Source: a virus. Taken from it: a stretch of DNA of 64,000 nt. Both the position numbers and the translations under genes were made by a program. Below the pieces are notes generated by a model. It was given only the letters and a program-made list of their open reading frames with translations, searched no databases and was not told the DNA's origin. Below are positions 13,709-63,897 of this stretch, in pieces; the stretch's first letter is position 1, and every line of letters starts with the position of its first letter. Location: positions 32,001 to 96,000 of IMG/VR virus record IMGVR_UViG_3300023179_000041, one strand, 5' to 3'.

Positions 13709-15163
13709 ATGAAGATAGTAATTGTTGGCTCTGGAACATCGGGATTAGTATCGGCAATAATCCTTAGGGGGCTATTCCCCTTGTGGGATATCACTGTTGT
13801 CTCATCAAAAGACATTGGCATTATTGGGGTCGGCGAAGGCTCAACAGAGCATTGGAGACTTTATTTCCAAGACAAATATAACATCCCTGTTTCGGAGATG
13901 GTCACAGCCTGTCGCGCAACGCACAAATACGGAATCAAATTTGAAAACTGGACAAAACATACGCCAAATTATTTCCACAGCGTAAGTGCTGGAGAGTGGG
14001 GTCGCGCGTATTTCCCTGCAAATTATGCGTTCTGTTTGGAGAACAACAAACTATTGACCAATTCTATGGTGACTCATCTTCACGACAATACGATTGTGTT
14101 GAACGAAGGCAACCCACATCATGCCGTAAATCAATTTCATTTTGACACTTTCAAACTTAATGAGTATTTGACAAGCGTCTGCAAGTTGCGAAATGTATCT
14201 TTTATCGATGGAAAGGTATCGCGAGTCACAAGAAACTCAGATAATGGTTTCATAGAGTCGATTGACGTGGATTCTTTCGGCTTGATAAATGGTGATTTTT
14301 TTATTGATGCAAGTGGGTTTCGCAGAGTTTTAATAAGTGAACTCGTTGATTCTGATAAAGACTTTGTTTCATATAGAAAATACGTTCCTTGCGATTCTGC
14401 CGCCGTATTCCCAACGCCACGTGACGAGAGTGGCGAAATTCGCCCATACACAAGGGCAAGAGCGATGCCGAATGGTTGGATGTGGGAAATCCCGACCCAA
14501 GACAGACGAGGCAATGGATATGTATTCGCCTCAGATTTTTGTTCAGAAGAGCAAGCAGTTAGAGAGATTTCGGAAGCCCACGGAAAAGATATAGAACCAG
14601 CAAAAATCATAAAGTTTAAGTCTGGATACCATAAAACCGCTTTCGCATTTAATTGTGTTGCTGTGGGCTTGTCCTCGTCGTTTGTTGAACCGCTGGAAGC
14701 AACTGCGATATCAACATCAATTCAACAAGCGCGAATGCTTGCCTCAGTTCTGCCGACGTTTTCTATTGGCTCAACTGCAACTGTGTCTCAATATAATAAA
14801 CAGTACGAATCACTGTTGGAAAACATAATCACCATGGTGGCAATGCACTACATTTCCGACAGAGATGATACCGAAATGTGGAGAGCACAACAAGGTCTTG
14901 AGAAGCCGCCCATGCTTGAACACTTGATATCCCTGTGGAAAGAAAGACTTCCAGAAGCATATGATGTCCCAATATTTGGGTATGAATTATTTCAGAACGC
15001 ACACTTTTGGCATGTCGCTCAAGGACAAGGTCTATTGAACCCAGATTTGGCAACTATCCAACTTGACGCATTTGCCGTACGTAGAGAAGCAGCAAAAAAC
15101 ATTGCAAATCTAAAAAACGCCGCACTTGGGTCAAAAACCGTTAAGCATCATGCGATTTTTTAA
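13709..15163 (+). CDS. Flavin-dependent (tryptophan-halogenase family) halogenase
   Basis: GSGTSG FAD motif, GVGEGS, THKYGIKF (catalytic Lys position), FIDASG, WMWEIP, FVEPLEAT. Confidence 0.9.
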   Translation: MKIVIVGSGTSGLVSAIILRGLFPLWDITVVSSKDIGIIGVGEGSTEHWRLYFQDKYNIPVSEMVTACRATHKYGIKFENWTKHTPNYFHSVSAGEWGRAYFPANYAFCLENNKLLTNSMVTHLHDNTIVLNEGNPHHAVNQFHFDTFKLNEYLTSVCKLRNVSFIDGKVSRVTRNSDNGFIESIDVDSFGLINGDFFIDASGFRRVLISELVDSDKDFVSYRKYVPCDSAAVFPTPRDESGEIRPYTRARAMPNGWMWEIPTQDRRGNGYVFASDFCSEEQAVREISEAHGKDIEPAKIIKFKSGYHKTAFAFNCVAVGLSSSFVEPLEATAISTSIQQARMLASVLPTFSIGSTATVSQYNKQYESLLENIITMVAMHYISDRDDTEMWRAQQGLEKPPMLEHLISLWKERLPEAYDVPIFGYELFQNAHFWHVAQGQGLLNPDLATIQLDAFAVRREAAKNIANLKNAALGSKTVKHHAIF

Positions 15164-19087: not shown

Positions 19088-20164
19088 ATGAAAATTGGGT
19101 ACATTTCTCAAGATTGGTCAAAGCATAATGGCAATTCTGTTCCAAACGGATGCACTTGGTACAGGTGCATAGTACCCGGCAAGGAAATGAAAAAATTTGG
19201 GGTGCTGACCGAAGTCGGTCTACTCGCAATGACAAGGAGCAATCAAATTGGCGTACAGCGTGTTGACGGAATGAAAGTCTCCGGGTTCGACATAATTGTT
19301 TTCAAATTGGCAATGCACGTGAGCACACTCGCAGCAGTTGATAGGGCAAAGGGAAACGGTCAAAAAATAGTCGTAGATATAGATGATTGGTTTGATGACC
19401 TACCTGATACAAATAGAGCAAAAATTATCACCGACCCAGAGCGAAACCCCTTCAACAACAGAAATATTTATTTTCAAATAATTGAACTTGCGGATGCGCT
19501 TATTTGCTCAACCGATTTTCTTTATCGCTGGTATAAAAACAAATATCCAAATAAATTGGTATTTTTAGTTCGCAACGCCATTGATTTGGATAGGTGGGCC
19601 AAGTACAAGCCACCAAAAGGAAAACCAGTCATCGGATGGATGGGCGCAACGCCCTGGCGTGCACTTGACTTAGAGCAGTTGCGTCCGTTTTTTGGGAATT
19701 TTATAAAACAACACAAACTAACTTTTCATCATGCCGGCCACATAGAGAATGCCGAGCACGCCGCAGACCTTCTTGGCATAGATAGGTCTTTTACTTCAAC
19801 AGAACCGATGCAGCCAATTACAAATCTCCCTTCACTAATGAAAAAATTCAACATTGGGATTGTTCCGCTAAACAATATTGATTTCAATAAGGCCAAGTCA
19901 TATCTGAAGGGGCTTGAGTATGCGGTTGCCGGAATCCCGTTTGTTGCCTCTGACATGTTTGAGTACAGACTCTTATCTGATGCTGGGATTGGTCGAATTG
20001 CAGATTCCCCAGAGCAATGGCAAGCACACATGGAGGCGCTATTGGATTTCAAGACGCGCAATGAAGATGCTAGAATTAATTACGAAATAGCAATATCTGA
20101 ATTCTCAATAGGTTCGCGTGTCAATGAATGGTTGTCAGTATTCAAAAAAATCTTGGAGCAATAG
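19088..20164 (+). CDS. GT-B (GT4-like) glycosyltransferase
   Basis: VVDIDD, IGWMG, IGIVPL..IDFNKAKSYLKGLEYAVAGIPFVAS. Confidence 0.85.
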   Translation: MKIGYISQDWSKHNGNSVPNGCTWYRCIVPGKEMKKFGVLTEVGLLAMTRSNQIGVQRVDGMKVSGFDIIVFKLAMHVSTLAAVDRAKGNGQKIVVDIDDWFDDLPDTNRAKIITDPERNPFNNRNIYFQIIELADALICSTDFLYRWYKNKYPNKLVFLVRNAIDLDRWAKYKPPKGKPVIGWMGATPWRALDLEQLRPFFGNFIKQHKLTFHHAGHIENAEHAADLLGIDRSFTSTEPMQPITNLPSLMKKFNIGIVPLNNIDFNKAKSYLKGLEYAVAGIPFVASDMFEYRLLSDAGIGRIADSPEQWQAHMEALLDFKTRNEDARINYEIAISEFSIGSRVNEWLSVFKKILEQ

Positions 20165-20167
20165 TTC

Positions 20168-21262
20168 ATGGCAAAAATTGAATTCAGCGTTGGTTTTGTT
20201 TCTACCGACTGGTCTCAGGTTGATGGTCAAATAGTGCCAAATGGCTGCACGTGGTACAGATGTATTTTGCCTTCACATGAGTTGCTGAAGTCTGGAATAA
20301 AATCGGCGGTTGGGCTCATTCAAATTCACGAAAATAGAGGTTTTGGCGTTGGCGGCATCGGGGTGCAAAAAGTAGGTACACATAAAATCATTGTGATGAA
20401 AGTAATAATGCATAAGTTGGTTCGCGACCATATTAAAAAAGCACAAAAGTACGGCCAAAAAATAGTTGTAGATATCGACGATTTGTTTGATGAGATTCAT
20501 GAAAGCAATATGGCTCACGGCTCGACAGACCCAACAAAAAACAAAGACAACAATCGAGTCATTTATAGTGAAATTATTGAGGCCTCTGACGCGCTTATTT
20601 GCTCGACCCCATTCATAGCGGAACATTACAAAGCAATGTTCCCAAGAAAACCTATATTTGTAATCAGGAATTCAATTGATGCCGGTAGATGGATACCATT
20701 TAACTCCGTTGAGAGGCAGCCAATTATCGGCTGGCTAGGCGCAACTCCATGGCGCTCATTAGACCTTGAGCAATTATCTGGTTTTTTCAACGAGTATCTT
20801 GAGTCTAGAAATGCAAAATTTCATCATTCGGGATACTTAAAGTGGGCCCCGCTCGCCCATAACAAATTGGGGATTAAGGATGCAAAGCGCGTAACGGTGT
20901 CTCCAATGGTGCCACTTATGGAGTTGCCACAAACATACGCAAACTTTGATATTGGAATTGTGCCGTTAAACGACATACCTTTCAATCGAGCAAAATCCTT
21001 CATTAAGGGCCTTGAATACGCGGCGGCTGGGATTCCATTTGTTGCTTCTGCACTGCCCGAATATGAATATCTTTCTGCTTGCGGCATAGGAACGATTGCG
21101 TCAAATAAAAGAGAATGGTTTGATGCCCTTGATTCATTGCTGGACGCAGGCAAAAGAGAGAAAGAAAGTTATAGGTGTAGGAAGATAGTTGAGGCCGATT
21201 TTTCTATTCAGGCGCACCGTAAAGAGTGGATTTCCGTGTTTAGGGAGATTGACAAGTTGTAG
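20168..21262 (+). CDS. GT-B (GT4-like) glycosyltransferase, tandem paralog
   Basis: Same motifs as upstream gene (PNGCTWYRC, GATPWR.LDLEQL, KGLEYAAAGIPFVAS). Confidence 0.85.
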   Translation: MAKIEFSVGFVSTDWSQVDGQIVPNGCTWYRCILPSHELLKSGIKSAVGLIQIHENRGFGVGGIGVQKVGTHKIIVMKVIMHKLVRDHIKKAQKYGQKIVVDIDDLFDEIHESNMAHGSTDPTKNKDNNRVIYSEIIEASDALICSTPFIAEHYKAMFPRKPIFVIRNSIDAGRWIPFNSVERQPIIGWLGATPWRSLDLEQLSGFFNEYLESRNAKFHHSGYLKWAPLAHNKLGIKDAKRVTVSPMVPLMELPQTYANFDIGIVPLNDIPFNRAKSFIKGLEYAAAGIPFVASALPEYEYLSACGIGTIASNKREWFDALDSLLDAGKREKESYRCRKIVEADFSIQAHRKEWISVFREIDKL

Positions 21263-46871: not shown

Positions 46872-47076
46872 CGCAAACACTCCAGCGTCACGCACTCGAC
46901 CCCAGCGAGTGCCAGATGTTGAGAAGTCAAGAAATCCATCATCTCTGCACGTCAAGCGGAATCTTCACCGAAGAAGAAGATGTCGTATTCAAAATTTCTG
47001 TTTTGATGTTGGAAGAACGACATGGCTGGTCGTATGGTGGTGGCGAACAACTCCACAAAAAGAAAGAAGAAGAACA

Positions 47077-47631
47077 ATGGTCACACAAAACCGATTGAGA
47101 GAAAATGGCGCCTTTAGCCCGGACCCAAAAGTTCGTGTCCATGTCCCACAGGACGTGTTTCTTCAGAACAACAAATATTTGTTGGATGAAAAGATTGATA
47201 CGCCGCGTGGCGGCGCTTGTCAAGGCCAAGACACTTCGATTTTCTTCCCACTACATGCAGACGGTCGCTACACAAAAAAGCAGTTGACAGATAGACAAAC
47301 CGCTATATCGCTTTGCCGGTCCTGCGATATCAGACAAAAGTGTTTGATGTATTCACTGGAGTACGAGCCACAAGGAATTTGGGGTGGATTCCCGGAACAA
47401 GCCAGAGCCCTACTCGGGAAGTTCTGGGGTATTGAAAACAAGAGAACTTGGAAGGTCAGAGCCTCCTTCTTGAGGTATAGAAAGATTGTCGACTATATTG
47501 TCAATTCGGAAGACATTGCGTTTCTCAAGAAAGTAGCCCATGACCACAATCTTGCACAACCACCTTTTGATGAACGGTCAGGCCTATCAGCCGCCGCGCG
47601 ACGTCGAATCAGTCAAGGAGTGGCTAACTAA
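47077..47631 (+). CDS. whiB: WhiB-family transcription factor with C-terminal extension
   Basis: ACQG.D..IFFP...A..LCRSC.IR.KCL.YSL....GIWGG (4 Cys + GIWGG). Confidence 0.85.
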   Translation: MVTQNRLRENGAFSPDPKVRVHVPQDVFLQNNKYLLDEKIDTPRGGACQGQDTSIFFPLHADGRYTKKQLTDRQTAISLCRSCDIRQKCLMYSLEYEPQGIWGGFPEQARALLGKFWGIENKRTWKVRASFLRYRKIVDYIVNSEDIAFLKKVAHDHNLAQPPFDERSGLSAAARRRISQGVAN

Positions 47632-47929
47632 GTTAGTTGCCGACATCGGCATGAAGATTGTTACTGGTCCTCATGCTTACTATGTCGAGAGTGAAGGAAA
47701 TCGCGGAATCACTGCGTGTGTATGTATTGAGACTTCGCACATCGCCTTCCACGTCTGGGATGAGGCAGTTCCCGCGCGCGTGCAGTTTGACCTTTACACA
47801 TGCTCAACCCTCCCCACACAAGCAGTTCTAGAAGCGTGCGAAAAGTATTTCGACTTGGTGGATTATCAGTATGTTGTCCTTAACCGCGAAGATGGTTTTG
47901 TCATTGAGAAAACAGGTCAGCGCATTTAG
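47540..47929 (+). CDS. speD: Pyruvoyl-dependent AdoMet decarboxylase family protein
   Basis: H.HLL...IGM...G.T....IETSHIAFHVW...QFDLYTC. Confidence 0.75.
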   Translation: MTTILHNHLLMNGQAYQPPRDVESVKEWLTKLVADIGMKIVTGPHAYYVESEGNRGITACVCIETSHIAFHVWDEAVPARVQFDLYTCSTLPTQAVLEACEKYFDLVDYQYVVLNREDGFVIEKTGQRI

Positions 47930-59609: not shown

Positions 59610-59742
59610 AGAAACGCGATATTGCGAAGCGGGATGCGGTTATAAGTTGCCAGAAGAATACGGCGACGACGAGACCATCTGTGGAGCCTGTTTGGACAAT
59701 CCTGAATCTTGGGAAGAGTCAGACTTGACATCCGTAAAATAA
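59602..59742 (+). CDS. Tiny zinc-ribbon protein (46 aa, not in ORF track)
   Basis: MSKETRYCEAGC...ICGACL. Confidence 0.5.
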   Translation: MSKETRYCEAGCGYKLPEEYGDDETICGACLDNPESWEESDLTSVK

Positions 59743-59754
59743 CTGTCATACTTG

Positions 59755-59840
59755 ACGACGCGGCTGAGGCTTTCCTTCCTTGTGCCTCAGTCGTCGGGTG
59801 CGCGGCCCGTCCAGGTTCTTAATCCCTTTCTGTCCTGGGC
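59755..59840 (+). ncRNA. Candidate small RNA with pyrimidine-rich (anti-SD-like) loops
   Basis: TTGACA-N16-CATACT promoter at 59725-59752; hairpins with loops TTTCCTTCCTTGT and TTCTTAATCCCTTTCTGT. Confidence 0.4.
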
Positions 59841-59852
59841 GGGCCCCCTGAC

Positions 59853-60160: not shown

Positions 60161-61204
60161 ATGTCCAAAGAAACTATGGAGTGGCTCAACTCCAACATTC
60201 TCGTCGGGTTCACCGCCGAGCGTGGGAACGCGTGGCACTACCGCGCCGACCTACAAGGTTCAGAGCCAAACCACTACGAAGGCGCGATTCCGACCGACGA
60301 TATTCTTCGTCGGCTCTTCGCGTGGTCGGCAGTATCGGCTCCCGTTTTTGTTCGTGTCCCCGCGACACTTGAAGACGCGACCTCAACCGATGACGAAGGC
60401 AATCCAATCAAGTTCATTCGCGTAGAGCGTCAAGCAATCTTGCGCTCAGATACCAACGAACTGATGGAAATCTTCGGCAACGACTATCGCTCGCACCAAT
60501 ACGGCGAGTGGCTCGTTCAGAACCTTGCGAACATCGTTGATGGAAATATCAACTTTGGCTCGGCAGGGCTCTTGAAGAACGGCGCAGTTGCGTTCGTCTC
60601 GTTGGAAATGCCAGAGTCAGTAGAAGTGTTGGAAGGATTCTCAGTCCGACCGCACCTACTCGCGACTACTTCGCACAACGGAATGTTGGCAACGACCTAC
60701 AAGAGCGTTTCTACATTCGTCGTGTGCGATAACACTCACGCGATGGCGATGAGCGAAAACACGAGTCAGTTCAAGACCCGACACAGCAAGTATTCGGGAA
60801 TGAAGATTCAGTCTGCTCGTGACGCTCTTGGTATCGTTCACAAGATGACGGAAGATATCGTCGCGGAAGTGACGAAACTGTCCGAAGTCAAAGTGACCGA
60901 CGCAGAATGGCAAAAAGTGCTTGAAGCACTCGCGCCTATTCCGTCGCTTGCGAAAGACGAAAGCAACAAGGCAGCAGTGACGCGCGCAGAGAATAAGCGC
61001 GCCGAACTTGTCGGTCTTTACAACTACGATGTTCGCGTGGCACCGTGGAAGGGTTCAGCACTTGGAGTTCTTCAAGCGTTCAACACTTACAACCACCACA
61101 TCGTCGGCAACGACAAGAACCGCGCCGAGCGCAATCAAATGAACGCGCTAATGGGCAAGACCGAGCAGAGTGACCGAAAGGTTCTCCAACTTCTCGGAGT
61201 CTGA
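60161..61204 (+). CDS. DUF932 family phage/plasmid protein
   Basis: AWH, SAG.L..GA..F, LLATTSHNG, VVCDNT, FKTRH, ..SALG..QA motifs. Confidence 0.85.
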   Translation: MSKETMEWLNSNILVGFTAERGNAWHYRADLQGSEPNHYEGAIPTDDILRRLFAWSAVSAPVFVRVPATLEDATSTDDEGNPIKFIRVERQAILRSDTNELMEIFGNDYRSHQYGEWLVQNLANIVDGNINFGSAGLLKNGAVAFVSLEMPESVEVLEGFSVRPHLLATTSHNGMLATTYKSVSTFVVCDNTHAMAMSENTSQFKTRHSKYSGMKIQSARDALGIVHKMTEDIVAEVTKLSEVKVTDAEWQKVLEALAPIPSLAKDESNKAAVTRAENKRAELVGLYNYDVRVAPWKGSALGVLQAFNTYNHHIVGNDKNRAERNQMNALMGKTEQSDRKVLQLLGV

Positions 61205-61213
61205 CCGCGTACA

Positions 61214-61237
61214 GGTGGGGTGCGAAAGCACCCCACC
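61214..61237 (+). terminator. GNRA-capped hairpin after DUF932 gene
   Basis: GGTGGGGTGC-GAAA-GCACCCCACC. Confidence 0.6.
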
Positions 61238-61308: not shown

Positions 61309-61377
61309 CCAAGGGAACGGCGCAGCATAAGAATAAAACCATTGGTAATGGAACACCATTTCTTGGGTCGGGAGCAG
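61309..61377 (+). repeat. Early-region element, copy 6
   Basis: CCAAGGGAACGGC...AATAAAACCA-N7-TGGAACACCATTTCTTGGG. Confidence 0.9.
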
Positions 61378-61460
61378 GAGCAGGTTTACAGCGCACCGGC
61401 GCATAGCAAAACTGTTAGGCAAGCCTTACAAAAGAAACTTTGCACAATCTCAGTTTCGGG

Positions 61461-61562
61461 TTGCGCACCACACCCCAAGTGTGGTACAGTATAGGTATGG
61501 GGTTAGCACCCCAGAAAATAATTCAGAATAAGGTTGCGAAAGCGACTAGAATGTGATACAGT
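61461..61562 (+). promoter_or_regulatory. Two tandem promoters upstream of ncRNA
   Basis: TTGCGC-N18-TACAGT (61461-61490); TTGCGA-N17-TACAGT (61534-61562). Confidence 0.7.
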
Positions 61563-61568
61563 ATAAGT

Positions 61569-61797
61569 AGTGGGAAACCACTACGGAATCACTAACAACA
61601 TACGGATAGCATTACCAGTCACGCGTTGTATCACCAGCGATGTGCGAGAGAAGTGCCGCGGCACCCACTCAGTTCCTCTCCTGCGATGAGCCGCCTCTGC
61701 TAGTCCCTGCTATCGGCGGCAACCAGACTTGCTATCTGGTGGGTCGCAACGAAATGGGCAACGACGGTTGCTGTTGGTGGTTTCGTAGTGGTTTCTG
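61569..61797 (+). ncRNA. Unidentified ~225-nt structured RNA
   Basis: Own promoter, no credible ORF, 24-bp closing stem (61574-61597 with 61772-61795) whose three non-WC pairs are all G-U; nested internal hairpins. Confidence 0.7.
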
Positions 61798-61808
61798 ACT
61801 GCGATAGG

Positions 61809-61865
61809 TTGCGAAAGTGCCTAGCGTGTGATACAATCTAAGTAGTGGGCAATCCCGCCCACTAC
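61809..61865 (+). promoter_or_regulatory. Early promoter with 5' leader hairpin
   Basis: TTGCGA-N17-TACAAT then GTAGTGGGC-AATCCC-GCCCACTAC. Confidence 0.75.
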
Positions 61866-61887
61866 AAACACAAGGAAAGGCAACACA

Positions 61888-62340
61888 ATGAGTACCATCA
61901 GCAATACGACGGAACTGAGCGTGGGAGAAATCGTCTCACTGCTCGGCGCAAACTGTCTCAACACCAACCCGACTATCGGCACTGCCCCCACAAAGGCTCG
62001 TGTCGCACCCGTAGCGTTCCACGACGGACACCCAATCTGGGTCAAAGACTTGGAACAGCGTGGCGGAGATGTGTACGACCTGCTGGATACAATCACCCCC
62101 GACGAGTCTGCGAACTATTACGGGGTCATTACGGCTGGTTGGGCTTCGCCCGTTGGAGACAACGACCACCTGCCACCGTCTCAGCACCCTGAGCGTCGGC
62201 GTGTGGAGTTGCTGGTCGTCGTCAATCGTGACGGCTCAATAGCAAGCGCACTCTCAATGTCGGGCAACGACGAACTGATTATTGACGAAGGCAAAGCGCA
62301 CGGCGCACTTGCCGACGCAGTTCTCGGTATCTTCGCCTGA
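61888..62340 (+). CDS. Hypothetical protein
   Basis: AAGGAAAGG RBS; GWASP...PSQHPERRRV. Confidence 0.7.
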   Translation: MSTISNTTELSVGEIVSLLGANCLNTNPTIGTAPTKARVAPVAFHDGHPIWVKDLEQRGGDVYDLLDTITPDESANYYGVITAGWASPVGDNDHLPPSQHPERRRVELLVVVNRDGSIASALSMSGNDELIIDEGKAHGALADAVLGIFA

Positions 62341-62347
62341 GTCAGTC

Positions 62348-62374
62348 GGGCTGGTGGGCAACCCCCACCAGCCC
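62348..62374 (+). terminator. GC-rich hairpin
   Basis: GGGCTGGTGGG-CAACC-CCCACCAGCCC after stop codon. Confidence 0.55.
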
Positions 62375-62412
62375 ACAACTCGGCCGGCAGGGGCAGAATC
62401 TTCCAAACAAAG

Positions 62413-63826: not shown

Positions 63827-63897
63827 CCCAAGGGAATGGCGCAGCCTTAAATAAATCCGAATATCGAGGAACACCATATTTTGTGGCAGGGGCAGAA
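63827..63897 (+). repeat. Early-region element, copy 7
   Basis: CCCAAGGGAATGGC...AAATAAATCC-N9-GGAACACCATATTTTGTGGCAGGGGCAGAA. Confidence 0.9.

Follow-up and report, generated by a model that had tools for sequence, protein, structure and literature searches.

A predicted structured non-coding RNA, about 230 nt long and behind an early promoter of its own, in a clade of freshwater actinophages

What does a phage make from an early promoter that fires into a stretch of DNA without a gene? The window analysed here, a stretch of 64,000 nt, comprises bases 32001-96000 of a linear IMG/VR phage record of 106,278 bp that is estimated to be 79% complete. Within it, an interval of about 680 nt without a credible gene separates a DUF932/phrog_1221 gene (60161-61204) from a gene at 61888-62340, which encodes a 150-aa protein without a family in Pfam or PHROGs. 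We hold with high confidence that this interval contains a genuine, selected RNA structure, and we propose that it is the product of a non-coding RNA gene of about 230 nt that has its own early promoter. By sequence similarity, a WhiB-domain gene (46909-47631) and the relatives of the DUF932 protein place the record among the actinobacterial phages; the closest cultured relatives of the latter protein, at 40-44% identity, belong to phages of Rhodococcus, Gordonia, Microbacterium, Mycobacterium and Streptomyces. The sequencing runs that contain words common to the RNA locus are freshwater or lake metagenomes. Behind the WhiB-domain gene comes one for an S-adenosylmethionine decarboxylase-like protein (46909-47929 for the two), an unusual auxiliary gene pair for a phage, and a tryptophan-halogenase-like gene and two glycosyltransferase genes (13709-15163 and 19088-21262) lie within the structural/late region. 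The ends of the record, outside the window (record positions 1-11 and 106268-106278), bear an identical TGTGATACACT promoter core; the record may thus be circularly closed or permuted, or it may reflect an assembly break at a repeated promoter.

The layout of the region defines the setting of the RNA. From about 49 kb on, the genome is a chain of short rightward cassettes, each headed by a member of one promoter family (GTTGCRAA...GTGATACAnT with a TG extension), of which the genome has about 29. The preliminary description of this DNA had noted a consensus early promoter before the element, and we find it at 61534-61562 on the + strand (promoter P2, an extended -10 promoter of the host type), where TTGCGA (61534-61539) and TACAGT (61557-61562) are separated by a 17-nt spacer with a TG extension; pattern searches and alignments show it to be near-invariant in all relatives. 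A second promoter, placed about 70 bp further upstream in the same description, is likewise present at 61461-61490 on the + strand (TTGCGC 61461-61466, an 18-nt spacer with a TG extension, TACAGT 61485-61490), and the relatives also have this upstream promoter together with a covarying hairpin (alignment A1). Both promoters are members of the family described above. The hairpin, at 61498-61513 in the window, covaries between lineages with its equivalents in contigs L009 and L008 (UGGGG/CCCCA, GGGC/GCCC, AGGGC/GCCCU), and may be a 5' stabiliser of early transcripts. Judged from promoter spacing, transcripts from promoter P2 are predicted to start at about 61569-61570, where the terminal helix described below begins. 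The next cassette has a promoter of its own (promoter P3, 61809-61837 on the + strand, TTGCGA-17-TACAAT), which serves the gene at 61888-62340. No intrinsic terminator-like site was found on the + strand between the RNA and promoter P3, so that transcription is expected to continue into the next cassette. The remainder of the interval contains a GC hairpin behind the DUF932 stop (61214-61237) and, between the DUF932 gene and the upstream promoter, one copy (61309-61377) of a dispersed, roughly 70-bp element (CCAAGGGAAYGGCGCAGC ... GGAACACCAT). A further copy of this element lies at 63828-63895; both copies occupy cassette boundaries, and words from the element rank among the most repeated 9-mers of the genome. 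Leftward members of the promoter family occur on the - strand beyond the window end, at window positions 68961, 69982 and 71572 (genome 100961, 101982 and 103572); all three have GGTTG(C/T)TTTTT as their -35 region, and the G-rich sequence behind them contains GGAGACG or GGCGAC.

The structural analysis depends on homologues. Five viral contigs were reached through the DUF932 protein, and metagenome contigs through DNA patterns derived from the invariant blocks of the RNA; removal of duplicates and false positives with a covariance model left eight distinct sequences, from related phage contigs that form three lineages. The first lineage comprises the window, L005, L040, L027 and L035 (87-91% identical), the second L009 and L008 (about 69-72% identity), and the third L007 alone. 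Each genome carries one copy of the RNA. A blastn search of 61400-61900 against 50,697 cultured phage records gave no match, and the distant relative L010 gave no RNA match. Loose DNA patterns run against viral, metagenome and genome collections returned, outside a single phage clade, only false positives that the covariance model rejected, and one scan of bacterial genomes for prophage copies also returned false positives only. The RNA family is so far restricted to one clade of freshwater actinophages, and the covariance model R2 is available to track it in new data.

The sequence from the window folds at -98.2 kcal/mol on the + strand (z -4.3; none of 200 shuffles was as good), and less well on the - strand, at -86.0 kcal/mol (z -2.8). 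Comparison of homologues, which the preliminary description had suggested as a check, revealed compensatory changes. In alignment A2, made with MAFFT blind to structure, 95.4% of the cells are paired over a pruned set of 53 counted pairs. Double-sided changes occur in 22 of these 53 pairs, compared with 1-4 in controls that shift the partners by 1-3 columns, and the observed covariation score was reached by none of 500 shuffles; since the family is narrow, with three related lineages, these pair counts rest on few independent events. RNAalifold applied to A2 independently gave these helices, the terminal helix P1 and four inner ones. Among the paired cells, 49 are G-U and 5 are A-C, and this excess of G-U indicates that the structure is selected on the + strand as a single strand, i.e. 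as RNA; the earlier suggestion of selection on RNA and not on a DNA palindrome is thus borne out. For the same reason it is very improbable that the element acts as DNA, be it as an origin, a recombination site or a leftward promoter; the distance of 176 nt between the two arms of the terminal helix also speaks against this. On the - strand, 61626-61634 does read GTGATACAAC, the genome has true leftward promoters of the family at other places, and in three relatives a -35 falls within the 3' arm of P1; but the - strand sequence ends in TACAAC, without the last T of the -10, and has no GTTGC -35, both of which are present in all promoters of the family.

A small protein is also hardly credible as the product of this locus. 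An ATG-started frame of 52 codons (61640-61798) is present in the window and in its closest relatives, but it is absent from L009, L008 and L007 and shifts within L005; no Shine-Dalgarno (SD) sequence precedes its ATG, the indels of 1, 3 and 8 nt are not multiples of three, and Pfam and PHROGs gave no match. Nowhere within the alignment of the element was an ORF common to the three lineages found. The stretch had been described as free of open reading frames, and in the sense of a conserved frame it is, the 52-codon frame being confined to the window's own lineage.

The predicted fold is a four-way junction of helices P1, P6, P4 and P5, in which the P6 arm carries hairpins P2, P3 and P8. P5 abuts P1, and 0-1 nt separates P6 from P4; in total there are eight or more helices. 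Invariant blocks occupy loops and junctions (UAUCAC, CUUGCUA, GACG and GUYCCUG), in addition to a CU-rich loop. The terminal helix P1 joins 61570-61596 to 61773-61799 on the + strand. The inverted repeat first described as a 24-bp stem is therefore real, but it is longer, with 27 pairs that in the window include four G-U pairs and one G-G mismatch. In P1, 10 of the 27 pairs show double-sided change and 95% of the cells are paired, and a length of 24-27 bp is held while the sequence varies. Its first pair coincides with the predicted start of the transcripts from promoter P2. At its other end, the -35 (TTGCTT) of the next promoter sits within the 3' arm of P1 in L007, L008 and L009, and in the window lineage a 24-nt insertion supplies a separate -35; part of the conservation of this arm could accordingly be at the level of DNA in those three sequences.

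Helix P6 pairs GAUAGCA (61605-61611) with UGCUAUC (61708-61714, preceded by a conserved GUCCC) and encloses P2, P3 and P8. It was missed by the alignment-based tools because MAFFT offset the region by one column, and model R2 failed to re-register it in the distant lineages (73% paired in alignment A4); the evidence for P6 is instead a sequence-by-sequence comparison of its strands. In the close relatives the two strands covary (GAUAGCA/UGCUAUC, AAUAGCA/UGCUAUU, GGUAGCA/UGCUACC), the distant lineages have GGAAUACA/UGUAAUCC and AGAAGUCA/UGACUACU (five sequences in all), and every single-sequence minimum free energy structure of the inner domain contains the helix. Within the P6 arm, hairpin P2 (61624-61639; CGUUG, loop UAUCAC, CAGCG) is invariant, which leaves no variation for a covariation test; its block UUGUAUCAC, read as the reverse complement, is identical to the promoter core GTGATACAA. 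Hairpin P3 (61653-61664, GUGC-CGCG-GCAC) has equivalents at the same place in L009 (GACUG/CAGUC), L008 (GACCG/CGGUC) and L007 (UAAGUU/AACUUA), with a swap from U-A to C-G between L009 and L008. In hairpin P8 (61668-61690), CUCA/UGAG closes a CU-rich loop of 15 nt (GUUCCUCUCCUGCGA); the stem is CUCG/CGAG in L009 and L008, and the loop is 12-15 nt long and CU-rich in all lineages. Elsewhere in the window, at 59725-59850, GC hairpins whose loops are CU-rich (UUUCCUUCCUUGU, AAUCCCUUUCUGU) come after a TTGACA...TCATACT promoter, with no obvious gene, and these loops echo the anti-SD-like loop theme of P8.

On the other side of the junction, the bipartite arm P4 (61716-61747) consists of an outer helix GCGGC/GUCGC and an inner helix ACCAGA/UCUGGU around the invariant 7-nt loop CUUGCUA (61728-61734). 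Double-sided change affects 7 of its 11 pairs, and 98.7% of its cells are paired. P5 (61757-61772; GGCAAC, loop GACG, GUUGCU) shows double-sided change in 4 of 6 pairs. The hairpins that the preliminary description had drawn as ACCAGA/CTTGCTA/TCTGGT and GTGC/GCAC are thus kept by covariation. The same cannot be said of its GAGAG/CTCTC, TGCGA/TCGCA and GCCGCC/GGCGGC helices, which are paired solely in the window's lineage; in place of the latter two, the relatives pair GCGGC (61716-61720) with GTCGC (61743-61747), with compensatory changes. A folding switch had also been put forward, in which an AGTGG-GAAA-CCACT hairpin would compete with the long stem, and conservation does not support it: the hairpin is absent in L009, L008 and L007, and is a generic leader hairpin that follows several promoters of this phage's cassettes. 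Two further candidates are not claimed as helices, namely P7 (UUACCAG/CUGCUAG), whose pairing is disrupted in L027, and a possible CAU/AUG pairing of two junction strands, which shows little variation.

The neighbourhood of the RNA suggests that it is a module in its own right. Homologous genes follow the RNA only in the window lineage and L009 (66% identity); the genes at this place in L007 and L008 are unrelated. The different downstream genes, together with the separate promoter that precedes them, favour an own cassette or module over a gene-specific leader. Consistent with this, examination of the locus as a riboswitch or gene-specific leader found no constant downstream gene, and no terminator or SD-sequestering hairpin at the locus. 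Upstream, all members have the DUF932 gene, but cultured phages of Rhodococcus and Gordonia have small genes about 90 nt after DUF932, leaving no room for such an RNA, and this indicates that DUF932 and the RNA are not general partners. Two public sequencing libraries contain contigs of this region. A lake library labelled metatranscriptomic, possibly of DNA, contains one contig of 184 nt that covers 61601-61781 at 94% identity and, as a contig, cannot show strand, ends or level; a freshwater RNA library contains two contigs of 151 nt in the downstream gene, at a depth of 2, to which the same limits of strand, ends and level apply.

The best explanation overall, which we hold at not quite an even chance, is a stand-alone non-coding RNA gene of about 230 nt, whose released product would act in trans, probably by binding protein. 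We propose that host RNA polymerase would make the RNA early, from the two tandem promoters, and that the long terminal helix P1 would set and protect the ends of the mature RNA. The mature RNA would be cut from read-through early transcripts at P1, most likely by an enzyme of the RNase III type acting on the 27-bp duplex. Cleavage by RNase III requires a duplex of at least about 20 bp; the 27-bp P1, with its conserved length and its 10 covarying pairs, exceeds this length, and a length that is kept while the sequence changes is expected where the length of the duplex itself matters. Once freed, the RNA would serve as a specific protein-binding scaffold or decoy acting in trans, and not as the leader of a neighbouring gene. 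A discrete, stable, trans-acting RNA appears the most likely product because the length of P1 is kept, many helices covary and several loops are invariant. The trans-acting, protein-binding mechanism taken by itself is a proposal that we make tentatively, somewhat short of an even chance: without a terminator, the RNA could simply be part of a longer early transcript, and the CU-rich unpaired blocks fit base-pairing at least as well as they fit the binding of a protein.

Base-pairing is accordingly one alternative that we regard as possible, though doubtful. The CU-rich loop of P8 and C-rich blocks (GCCGYCC, GUCCC) would pair with G-rich Shine-Dalgarno regions and so prevent the translation of mRNAs of the host or the phage, after the model of the C-rich loops of 6C/B11 or RsaE, and the large fold would be a stabilising scaffold. 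The 12-15 nt loop is indeed kept CU-rich in the three lineages (UCCUCUCCU, UCCCUUCU, CUCCCUCCU), is closed by a covarying stem and is predicted to be mostly unpaired (0.63-0.79 in four sequences), and further promoter-driven hairpins with CU-rich loops lie nearby, for example at 59760-59850. However, the phage genome has no extended complementary site, the best being generic SD-like 9-mers at background level, with no match of at least 11 nt; the loop sequence drifts between lineages, and the search of the phage genome identified no target that drifts with it; and the blocks that are most invariant (P2, the P4 loop, the P5 loop) are not CU-rich, so that base-pairing leaves them unexplained. 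A cis-acting element of the early transcript is another reading to which we give a minor share of belief, either as an RNase III processing or insulating site between cassettes, or as a put/EAR-like RNA that remains bound to polymerase during transcription and lets it read through the terminator hairpins of downstream cassettes. The position directly behind two tandem strong promoters, the lack of a terminator before the next cassette, a 27-bp duplex that is a plausible RNase III substrate, the GC hairpins in which downstream cassettes end (e.g. 62345-62375) and an indifference to the identity of the downstream gene that is compatible with a polymerase-directed mechanism all point this way. 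Yet the interior of about 175 nt, with five or more covarying helices and invariant loops, far exceeds what a processing site needs, known put RNAs comprise only two hairpins and about 70 nt, a separate promoter for the next gene follows the RNA, and the locus lies in the middle of an early region of about 29 promoters and not at its head.

A decoy for RNA polymerase like 6S or Ms1, the role proposed in the preliminary description, or an RNA aimed at the phage's own promoters through the hairpin P2 block UUGUAUCAC, antisense to the -10 core GTGATACAA, is improbable. On the + strand of the genome, the motif of which this 9-mer is the reverse complement occurs 13 times, and GTGATACA 29 times. 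The block does not vary in any lineage, and the same promoter core is in use in the phages of the relatives. Against this stand a branched junction in place of a rod with a central bubble, which also disfavours the decoy as first proposed, and a search of Rfam that gave no match to 6S or Ms1 even at E up to 10. The 9-mer coincidence, moreover, was spotted post hoc: 11% of shuffled elements contain a 9-mer that is antisense to some 9-mer with at least 6 copies, and we estimate the chance at roughly 1% if only a handful of promoter-core words are counted. A more far-reaching proposal, which we think unlikely, is that this is a new class of phage RNA with a complex fold and a biochemical role of its own, beyond that of a simple antisense regulator. 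It might be the core of a ribonucleoprotein or a decoy that would reprogramme a host machine early in infection, or it might use UUGUAUCAC to recognise the -10 core that the early promoters, roughly 29 in number, have in common, or their read-through transcripts. The predicted boundaries and the invariant loops of the RNA are direct targets for mutagenesis and pull-downs. The RNA comes from phages of uncultured freshwater Actinobacteria, in which the early take-over of the host is essentially unexplored.

On the present sequence comparisons, the phage RNA is a new family, in agreement with the earlier impression that it belongs to no known one. Rfam 15 gave no match at gathering thresholds in the whole 64-kb window, and in E-value mode (window, L009 and L007) only chance-level matches, different in each homologue. 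One of these, a weak resemblance to the Lacto-phage-1 RNA (RF03004; GCCGCCUCUGCUAGUC...CGGCAACC, 16.1 bits and E 2.3, against a gathering score of 50 bits), was judged to be chance, since the GCCG/CGGC pairing is not conserved in the relatives and the match was not reproduced in L009 and L007. The earlier idea of a tRNA-like sponge found no backing either: ARAGORN reports no tRNA or tmRNA gene in the window, the P5 loop has 4 nt, and the 7-nt P4 loop CUUGCUA has U where purine-37 would stand. Searches of the 106-kb record, about 79% complete, for Ro60/TROVE (PF05731) and for reverse transcriptase (PF00078) gave no match, with matches in the control genomes, and this leaves the Y-RNA and retron readings without a partner gene in the record; the host may have a Ro60 of its own.

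The known systems that the RNA most resembles each share part of its design. As in 6S RNA and the mycobacterial Ms1, which measure about 200-300 nt, a long closing helix joins its 5' end to its 3' end; 6S, however, is a rod with a central bubble, whereas the phage RNA has a four-way junction and a further branched arm. With YrlA, the partner of Ro60, it has in common a long terminal stem and a branched, cloverleaf-like module, but it differs in lacking a T-loop, an Rfam match and a TROVE/Ro60 gene in the record, and in the negative result of ARAGORN. The put RNAs of HK022 and the c4 and CI leader RNAs of P1 and P4 are also structured RNAs made straight from phage early promoters, upstream of early genes. 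They are simple, at about 70-80 nt (put consists of two hairpins, about 70 nt in total), whereas the phage RNA has about 230 nt, eight or more helices and a promoter between itself and the next gene. The 6C/B11 RNAs of actinobacteria and RsaE of staphylococci also have a conserved C/U-rich loop, unpaired, with which SD sequences could be bound. They consist of two hairpins and measure about 60-100 nt, and for the phage RNA neither an Rfam match to them nor a target was found. To our knowledge, no covariation-supported fold has been described for the early RNAs of the cluster A mycobacteriophages L5, D29 and StarStuff. These phages make abundant, stable early non-coding RNAs from Pleft, the function of which is unknown (PMC5712189). 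Those RNAs share with ours an actinophage origin, the lack of a conserved ORF and an early lytic promoter, but they come from a region of about 500 bp at the end of the genome, the blastn search of 50,697 phage records gave no sequence match to them, and their expression has been shown, whereas the present RNA is known from sequence. Newly reported phage RNA motifs are mostly short hairpins. A large survey of candidate structured RNAs in IMG/VR gave motifs of 29-151 nt (PMC10690425). By comparison, the RNA described here has about 230 nt, strong covariation and its own promoter, and a multi-helix RNA of this kind has the profile of RNAs with specific partners or chemistry.
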